A stretch of DNA of 536 nt from Escherichia coli (GCF_003334335.1 NZ_QOWQ01000173.1), one strand, 5' to 3'; numbered from the stretch's first letter, positions 70 to 509 are shown. Translations and numbers: made by a program. The notes: a model not told the origin generated them from the sequence alone.

Positions 70-509
70 ACTTTGCCCTCAGACTGGCGCGTGAGATGGG
101 AAGACCCGACTGGCGCGCCATGCTTGCCGGGATGACATCCACCGAATATGCCGACTGGCACCGTTTTTACCGCACGCATTATTTTCAGGATACCCAGCTG
201 GATATGCATTTTTCCGGGCTGACGTACGCTGTACTCAGCCTGTTTTTTTGCGATCCGGATATGCATCCCTCTGATTTCAGTCTGCTTGTCCCCCGGCATG
301 AGGAAGAGCAGGTGGAGAGGCCGGATGAGGACAAAATGCTGATGCAGAAAGCGGCAGGACTTGCCGGAGGCGTCCGGTTCGGTGGGGACGGAGGGCGCGA
401 TATTTTATCGTCTGCGGATGTGGCGGATGTCATGGTGGATGATGCCGCATTAATGATGGCTTCAGCGGGGATTCCGGGAGGTGTGAGATATGTCCCAGCC
501 GGTTGGTGA
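1..509 (+). CDS. GT: Tail assembly chaperone G-T fusion made by -1 frameshift (equivalent to join 1..51,51..509), 5' partial
   Basis: After the slip at 45-51 the reading frame continues as ...DDDFSAGK/VFDGELNFALRLAREMGRPDWRAMLAGMTSTEYADWHRFY... to TGA at 507-509. The ATG at 96 has no usable Shine-Dalgarno (only GTGAG immediately abutting it), and the frame is open upstream to base 36. This fits T being made only as a fusion, as in lambda. Confidence 0.78.
45..51 (+). other. -1 programmed ribosomal frameshift slippery heptamer G_GGA_AAG (X_XXY_YYZ) joining G to T
   Basis: GGGAAAG at 45-51 is phased so the zero-frame codons are GGA (46-48) and AAG (49-51), the same heptamer and phasing as the lambda G/GT recoding site. 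The -1 frame has three consecutive stops (27-29, 30-32, 33-35) just upstream, then is open from 36 through 509. The zero frame stops 16 nt downstream, at 67-69. Confidence 0.8.
216..249 (+). terminator. Candidate intrinsic terminator-like hairpin plus U7 tract inside the T coding region (low confidence)
   Basis: GGCTGA (217-222) pairs with TCAGCC (235-240). After a bulged C223, GTAC (224-227) pairs with GTAC (231-234) around a 3-nt loop (228-230). Two nt later comes TTTTTTT (243-249). The same bases encode ...GLTYAVLSLFF..., so the structure may be incidental. Confidence 0.2.
476..481 (+). promoter_or_regulatory. Shine-Dalgarno sequence (GGGAGG) for the tape measure gene
   Basis: GGGAGG at 476-481 lies 8 nt upstream of ATG 490-492, which is good spacing. 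It is embedded in the 3' end of the GT coding sequence. Confidence 0.6.

Follow-up and report, generated by a model that had tools for sequence, protein, structure and literature searches.

The stretch of DNA analyzed here, 536 bases long and hereafter called the window, comes from an E. coli prophage and spans the junction of G, GT and H in a tail gene module of the lambda family; it contains the 3′ end of gene G, the complete T frame and 15 codons from the start of H. It has 100% identity with a chromosomal prophage of E. coli JE86-ST05, 99.8% identity with the induced phages PhiR12_1, _2, _4 and _5, and at least 99% identity with sequence in 1272 complete E. coli records, with some match in 2359 of 5426 genomes; nucleotide identity with lambda is only ~77%. 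The order E-FI-FII-Z-U-V-G-T-H-M-L is annotated in both the JE86-ST05 prophage and PhiR12_1, and includes the run V-G-T-H-M-L by which the tail module is recognized. All three genes pass their NCBIfam equivalog cut-offs, with 167.6 bits against the gpG model TIGR01674 for the full-length G of a 99.8% identical phage (cut-off 74.45), 193.3 bits against the gpT model TIGR01715 for the T ORF (cut-off 77.35), and 359.6 bits against the tape measure model TIGR01541 for the full H protein (cut-off 104.75). No promoter or terminator able to feed H separately was found inside the window, and no Rfam RNA family scored near its gathering threshold against it. Identical or near-identical RefSeq and GenBank records annotate the same start and stop, so the gene ends were already known; the layout of the junction is already annotated, common to all relatives examined, and ordinary. 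Coordinates of the features discussed below are collected in Table 1.

Table 1. Features of the window, with positions counted from its first base.
Feature	Position	Strand	Basis or remarks
G 3′ end, stop TGA 67–69	4–69	+	Frame-1 translation; annotated G in PhiR12_1 and JE86-ST05; window holds the last 22 codons only
Slippery heptamer G GGA AAG (−1 frameshift to GT)	45–51	+	Same heptamer in the same place as in lambda
T frame (−1 relative to G), C-terminal part of GT, stop TGA 507–509	45–509	+	Open frame 36–506
Internal first copy of T C-terminal motif (LMQKAAGLAGGVRFG)	337–384	+	GGAGG 366–370; TCG 379–381 in the place of ATG
Predicted hairpin, GGGA (476–479)/UCCC (493–496) plus GUGU/AUAU, covering SD and AUG	476–496	+	−9.1 kcal/mol in a 33-nt context
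H Shine-Dalgarno sequence (SD) GGAGGUG, encoded by T Gly-Gly-Val	477–483	+	16S rRNA complementarity; GGGAGG of the initial annotation is 476–481
H 5′ end (MSQPVGDLVIDLSLD...), running off the window	490–536	+	In-frame TGA 484–486 upstream; annotated tape measure start
T/H overlap, 20 nt, H in the +1 frame relative to T	490–509	+	Sequence; PhiR12_1 and JE86-ST05 annotations

The features of a frameshifted tail module are all present at the upstream end, where the −1 frame is open across the slippery site and a heptamer predicted to be slippery lies just before the G stop; a slippery sequence is annotated at the homologous position in the records of phi80 and N15. The molar ratio of gpG to gpGT is 30:1 (PMC5009743), from which it follows that a few percent of ribosomes cross T. 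G and H lie in one reading frame and T alone is offset by −1. The T frame ends in CCG GGA GGT GTG AGA TAT GTC CCA GCC GGT TGG TGA, that is P G G V R Y V P A G W and stop. The TIGR01715 match spans residues 1–99 of the 137-aa ORF (96–506), and residues 100–137 (window 393–509), a stretch of 38 residues that includes the H ribosome-binding site, fall outside the model. An 82-aa antisense ORF lies opposite T on the minus strand (window 185–433); it is unsupported and presumably spurious.

The start of H is well fixed. Its frame carries a TGA at 484–486, which makes the ATG at 490 the first possible start, and the next in-frame ATG comes 66 nt further on. The H N-terminus is homologous to that of lambda H, MAEPVGDLVVDLSLD, and the last two bases of the T tyrosine codon TAT serve as the first two of the H ATG. 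The PGAP annotation of the JE86-ST05 prophage (100% identical) and that of PhiR12_1 (99.8% identical) both end T at window position 509 and begin the tape measure at 490. The initial annotation, made from the window alone, had placed the G stop at 67–69, the H ATG at 490–492 with a 20-nt overlap out of frame with T, and a GGGAGG at 476–481 within the C-terminal codons of GT. The G stop is where it put it in the sequence and its three-frame translations, the start codon is confirmed by the translations and two independent annotations, the overlap does run from ATG 490 to the TGA at 507–509, and the GGGAGG is present as described.

For comparison among relatives, T homologues were gathered through the conserved T core alone, so that the junction itself could not bias the sample, from annotated phages, 80 IMG/VR contigs, and 23 loci from species-representative genomes. 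The 80 loci obtained from IMG/VR with the T alignment are almost all 92–100% identical to the window, with one at 86%, and thus inform micro-variation only; a species-dereplicated genome collection was added for diversity and contributed loci from Trabulsiella, Enterobacter, Kluyvera, Kosakonia, Klebsiella, and Providencia, with the lowest T identity in the sample (28–39%) in the Providencia prophages. The 117 sequences comprise 37 distinct 80-nt junctions, and 22 diverse junctions were aligned. Two of the records are odd. A 4.8-kb contig deposited as “MAG: Collinsella sp.” (JAIJJM010000220.1) encodes a T protein 100% identical to that of the present prophage, shares its T/H junction, and is almost certainly a mis-binned Escherichia contig, not one from the actinobacterium Collinsella. 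In Escherichia phage 204576 (CP025907.1, 849–1131) the region is 98.9% identical to the window, five bases shorter, and has a broken T frame; the difference consists of five single-base deletions, four of them within the alignment, and each removes one base from a homopolymer run. This phage was considered as a natural variant with a truncated T and set aside on account of these homopolymer-run deletions, which are probably sequencing error or else mark a decaying prophage.

The SD of H lies within the conserved T peptide motif G-I-x-G-G-x-R-Y. With 7 nt complementary to 16S rRNA, a spacing of 8 nt between GGAGG and start codon, and an ATG, it has the form of a canonical SD-led site (at least 5 complementary nt, 5–10 nt before the start). 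The predicted duplex with the anti-SD, −11.6 kcal/mol, is the strongest among ten head and tail genes of PhiR12_1, compared with −5.9 for V and −7.3 for G. In the window taken alone, the signal is modest against chance: GGAGG occurs 3 times with 1.35 expected, a count reached in 30 of 200 shuffles, and GGAGG-N8-ATG occurs once with 0.06 expected and is present in 11 of 200 shuffles. The weight of evidence is in conservation. GGAGG-N8-ATG stands at the T/H boundary in all 117 collected loci, including those from Providencia, and the alignment of 22 junctions has few invariant columns, those of GGAGG and ATG among them. An AGGAGG equivalent is annotated as the H ribosome_binding_site in the record of a lambda derivative (OM418627.1).

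Codon usage within the motif separates two layers of constraint. The first glycine is spelled GGA in 37 of 37 distinct junctions, compared with 27% of glycine codons elsewhere in these T ORFs, while all four codons occur for the second glycine, the third base of which is not part of GGAGG, and all six for the motif arginine. Fixation of GGA at the first position goes beyond what a Gly-Gly peptide needs and shows that the SD has been selected at the nucleotide level, and the free choice among six arginine codons indicates that this amino acid is under separate selection. The junction stretch is, on this codon evidence, dual-coded, with the SD selected as nucleotide and the T C-terminus as protein.

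The same peptide motif, LM-x(3)-(A/E)G-(L/I)-x-GGVR(F/Y), occurs twice in T proteins of the lambda and window lineages, in the window at 337–384 and again at 447–494 (LMMASAGIPGGVRYV), and the internal repeat of T outscores 2000 of 2000 shuffles. The T proteins of N15 and phi80 have a single C-terminal copy, whose best alignment is with the internal copy, the first of the two, and the match extends to DNA when lambda TTTGGCCCGGACGG is set against N15 TATGGCCCAGACGG. No direct repeats underlying the duplicated motif were found at the DNA level with 7-nt seeds, and the repeat is visible at the level of protein and short motifs only. The place of the ATG in the first copy is taken by TCG in the window and by TTG in lambda, and in this copy, which is not a ribosome-binding site, the codon of the first glycine varies by lineage between GGA and GGT. 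These patterns would be consistent with an old duplication of the segment containing the end of T and the start of H, with subsequent loss of the ATG from the upstream copy, which was then absorbed into T as internal coding sequence; the first copy is probably a fossil junction. There is a third GGAGG in T at 390–394 (GAC GGA GGG), with no suitably spaced start codon in an open frame, and all three SD-like sites fall in the sparsely translated T region.

A natural separation of the two constraints is provided by VT1-Sakai (AP000400.1, 1216–1303). T in this phage ends just past the first motif copy, 43 nt upstream of H, and the second copy has decayed as protein (GGDHD, compared with GGVRY), with GGAGG, the 8-nt spacer, and ATG intact. 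That the SD is retained where T no longer reads through to a nearby stop means that the constraints on the H site and on the T peptide are separable. The arrangement argues against an obligatory dependence of H on an overlapping T, provided that Sakai-type prophages make functional tails. In other Stx phages the match to the window likewise breaks off at about position 395, and judging from this breakpoint they probably share the short T.

Overlap lengths in relatives, both annotated and inferred, are 8 nt in lambda, 11 nt in one IMG/VR phage with a Sakai-like H, 17 nt in the phi80 group, 20 nt in the window group, Kosakonia, and Klebsiella, 23 nt in the N15 group and one Providencia locus, 26 nt in the other four Providencia loci, and 32 nt in Entomohabitans. 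The phase is identical in every overlap seen, placing H in the G frame; the length, across these annotated and inferred junctions, is not conserved. A T-frame stop is encountered within 20 nt from 35% of H codon positions (median 35 nt), and an overlap of 20 nt is therefore unremarkable, being about what chance run-on into H gives. The T frame simply continues beyond the H ATG to whichever in-frame stop comes first within H coding sequence, which in the window lineage is the TGA inside the H codons GGT GAT (codons 6–7); the length is therefore incidental. H codons 2–3 are GCT GAA in lambda, which gives the T frame TAT GGC TGA, and TCC CAG in the window, which removes lambda's TGA. Long overlaps usually arise through loss of the upstream stop and without coupling (PMC10666635). 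All the overlaps are on the short side of the chance median of 35 nt, which could hint at weak selection for a nearby T stop.

Taken together, the patterns detected are best explained if H initiates mainly de novo on its own SD, with the overlap incidental, a reading to which we assign a probability of roughly three in four on the basis of comparative sequence evidence. As the frameshift passes a few percent of G ribosomes to T, the ~420 nt upstream of H would be sparsely translated, and the H site must then recruit ribosomes itself. Free 30S subunits would bind GGAGGUG de novo and would supply most H initiation, and the overlap would follow as a side effect of fitting the H site into the last part of T. 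This route is favored by the strength of the SD, its selection at nucleotide level and its constant spacing of 8 nt. GT ribosomes terminating at 507–509 may add a small coupled part at most, through reinitiation 17 nt upstream, or may alternatively open the hairpin at 476–496 transiently; either contribution can be minor at most, as the flux of GT ribosomes caps its yield. The sequences show the start codon, the SD, the overlap, their conservation and the nucleotide-level selection on the SD directly; the relative shares of de novo and coupled initiation are inferred. The initial annotation had held it probable that H initiation is owed chiefly to a strong SD of the gene itself rather than to ribosomes delivered by GT, and had looked to related phages for conservation of both SD and overlap. 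Its main contention fits an invariant SD, conserved beyond the needs of the peptide and the strongest in the cluster, as well as an SD left intact in Sakai-type junctions and a site over which no masking structure is conserved. Conservation among relatives holds for the SD and the start codon (117 of 117) and fails for the length of the overlap, which varies from 8 to 32 nt, with no overlap at all in Sakai-type junctions; the strength claimed for the SD is upheld by its duplex energy and tempered somewhat by the predicted hairpin, which had been missed.

That hairpin is the basis for an alternative explanation, in which a lineage-specific structure at 476–496 closes the H site until an occasional GT ribosome opens it and allows a burst of H initiation. 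Masking of SD and AUG could, if the predicted fold forms, hamper de novo initiation and leave a real part in unmasking to GT ribosomes, and unfolding of RNA by upstream ribosomes is an accepted coupling mechanism (PMC12548453). The fold pairs the GGGA of the H SD with the UCCC of H codons 2–3, and accessibility of the ribosome-binding site is among the lowest 1–4% of 31-nt windows in two window-type loci, compared with the 36th–96th percentile in 12 other loci. The hairpin does not, however, exceed shuffled sequence in stability (z = −0.72, with 44 of 200 shuffles folding equally well), close relatives carry uncompensated changes in its outer pair (G to A, or CCGG to TCCG), RNAalifold returned 0 conserved pairs across the 22 diverse junctions, and no equivalent was seen in other lineages among the loci and junctions compared. 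Furthermore, a hairpin of this size would be expected to compete with, and not to exclude, SD pairing of −11.6 kcal/mol. A conserved SD-masking element was rejected in the light of the RNAalifold result and of a z of +0.63 against shuffles for the fold of a 107-nt segment of the window. Shuffle-level stability, uncompensated changes in the outer pair, and the lack of an equivalent elsewhere disfavor a selected function, and the predicted hairpin is treated here as a lineage-specific caveat and not a designed switch. We consider unfolding by GT ribosomes an unlikely route to most H.

A second alternative is termination-reinitiation, in which ribosomes that finish GT at 507–509 back up 17 nt and restart at ATG 490 with the aid of the SD. 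If this were true, H output would run about 1:1 with GT output and would set the stoichiometry of chaperone to tape measure. The out-of-frame overlap is found in nearly all relatives, in constant phase and over 8–32 nt, and neighboring genes in the cluster overlap by 1, 4, or 8 nt, as is typical of coupled late operons. The 8-nt overlap of lambda is among the three commonest classes and inside the range taken to predict reinitiation (PMC10666635), and backward restart over 38–50 nt is documented for the coat-lysis pairs of fr and MS2 (PMC12548453). Against this, GT flux is ~1/30 of G flux (PMC5009743), which limits any coupled yield, and efficiency in native E. coli pairs falls steeply beyond a stop-start distance of ~10–20 nt (PMC10666635); by the distance range given for termination-reinitiation in the same work, −8 to +10 nt, the window at −20 nt falls outside and lambda at −8 nt would fall inside. 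The variable length of the overlap, the 43-nt gap with SD kept in Sakai-type junctions, and a very strong, nucleotide-selected SD of the kind that a de novo site needs also count against it, and we regard it as quite improbable. No paper addressing T/H coupling was found in the literature; a paper on TP901-1 mentions coupling generically only, and PMC5737525, a re-analysis of the lambda ribosome profiling of Liu et al. 2013, has nothing on H or overlaps. Initiation of H largely on its own SD would also sit well with genetics. The T and H genes of lambda were defined by amber mutants as separate complementation groups, which implies that H is made when translation of T is cut short.

A more elaborate reading would treat the GG-x-RY motif and the H site as one dual-coded unit across Enterobacterales prophages, in which GT ribosomes ending 8–32 nt away hand over to H and so seed in cis one GT per tape-measure complex, with the bulk of H made de novo. 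Should this be true, the SD-masking hairpin would raise the share of H born beside GT in the window lineage, but we find the proposal very doubtful. Least probable, to the point of being negligible, is initiation of H at a codon other than ATG 490, which the initial annotation had named, in the form of a downstream start, as an outcome that would overturn it: any upstream start is barred by the in-frame TGA at 484–486, conservation of the peptide with H of lambda, N15, and phi80 begins at codon 2, the ATG column is invariant across the 22 diverse junctions, every annotation agrees on ATG 490, and no support for another start was found, the next in-frame ATG being 66 nt downstream.

The analysis has some practical implications. 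The first is that the correct tape measure start is confirmed for a segment of which more than 1,200 complete E. coli records carry a copy with at least 99% identity, which is little beyond housekeeping. The second is that the H site offers a clean experimental handle, as synonymous changes would alter the dose of H without touching GT and would permit tests of the stoichiometry of chaperone to tape measure in tail assembly. Coupling, if true, would link frameshift frequency to tape-measure supply, and nothing in the present analysis suggests that it does.

The closest known system is the T/H junction of lambda (NC_001416; T end 10549, H start 10542), with which the window shares homologous genes in the same order, the slippery GGGAAAG, the T C-terminal motif GI-x-GGVRY, GGAGG-N8-ATG, the sharing of two bases between TAT and ATG, and the frame relation. 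The overlap is 8 nt in lambda (ATGGCTGA) as opposed to 20 nt in the window, where T runs on to the TGA in H codons 6–7 and gains the tail VPAGW; the window carries another allele of the lambda T/H junction. In the phi80 / mEp043 / LLS and N15 / HK225 groups GGAGG-N8-ATG likewise lies inside GI-x-GG-x-RY, with an overlap in the same phase, and they differ from the window in overlap length (17 nt in the former, 23 nt in the latter) and in having one copy of the C-terminal motif in T, whereas T of the window and of lambda has two. Stx phages of the VT1-Sakai type have homologous G, T, and H and keep GGAGG-N8-ATG, but differ in placing the T stop after the first motif copy and leaving a 43-nt untranslated spacer before H. 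Finally, established coupled pairs, both those of the −4/−1/−8 nt class and the coat-lysis pairs of MS2 and fr, resemble the window in being co-directional on one mRNA with the upstream stop beyond the next start. The window is unlike them in that its upstream frame carries ~3% of ribosomes, its overlap is longer than the efficient class, and its downstream gene is served by a very strong SD within the junction; any dependence of H on upstream translation is putative.
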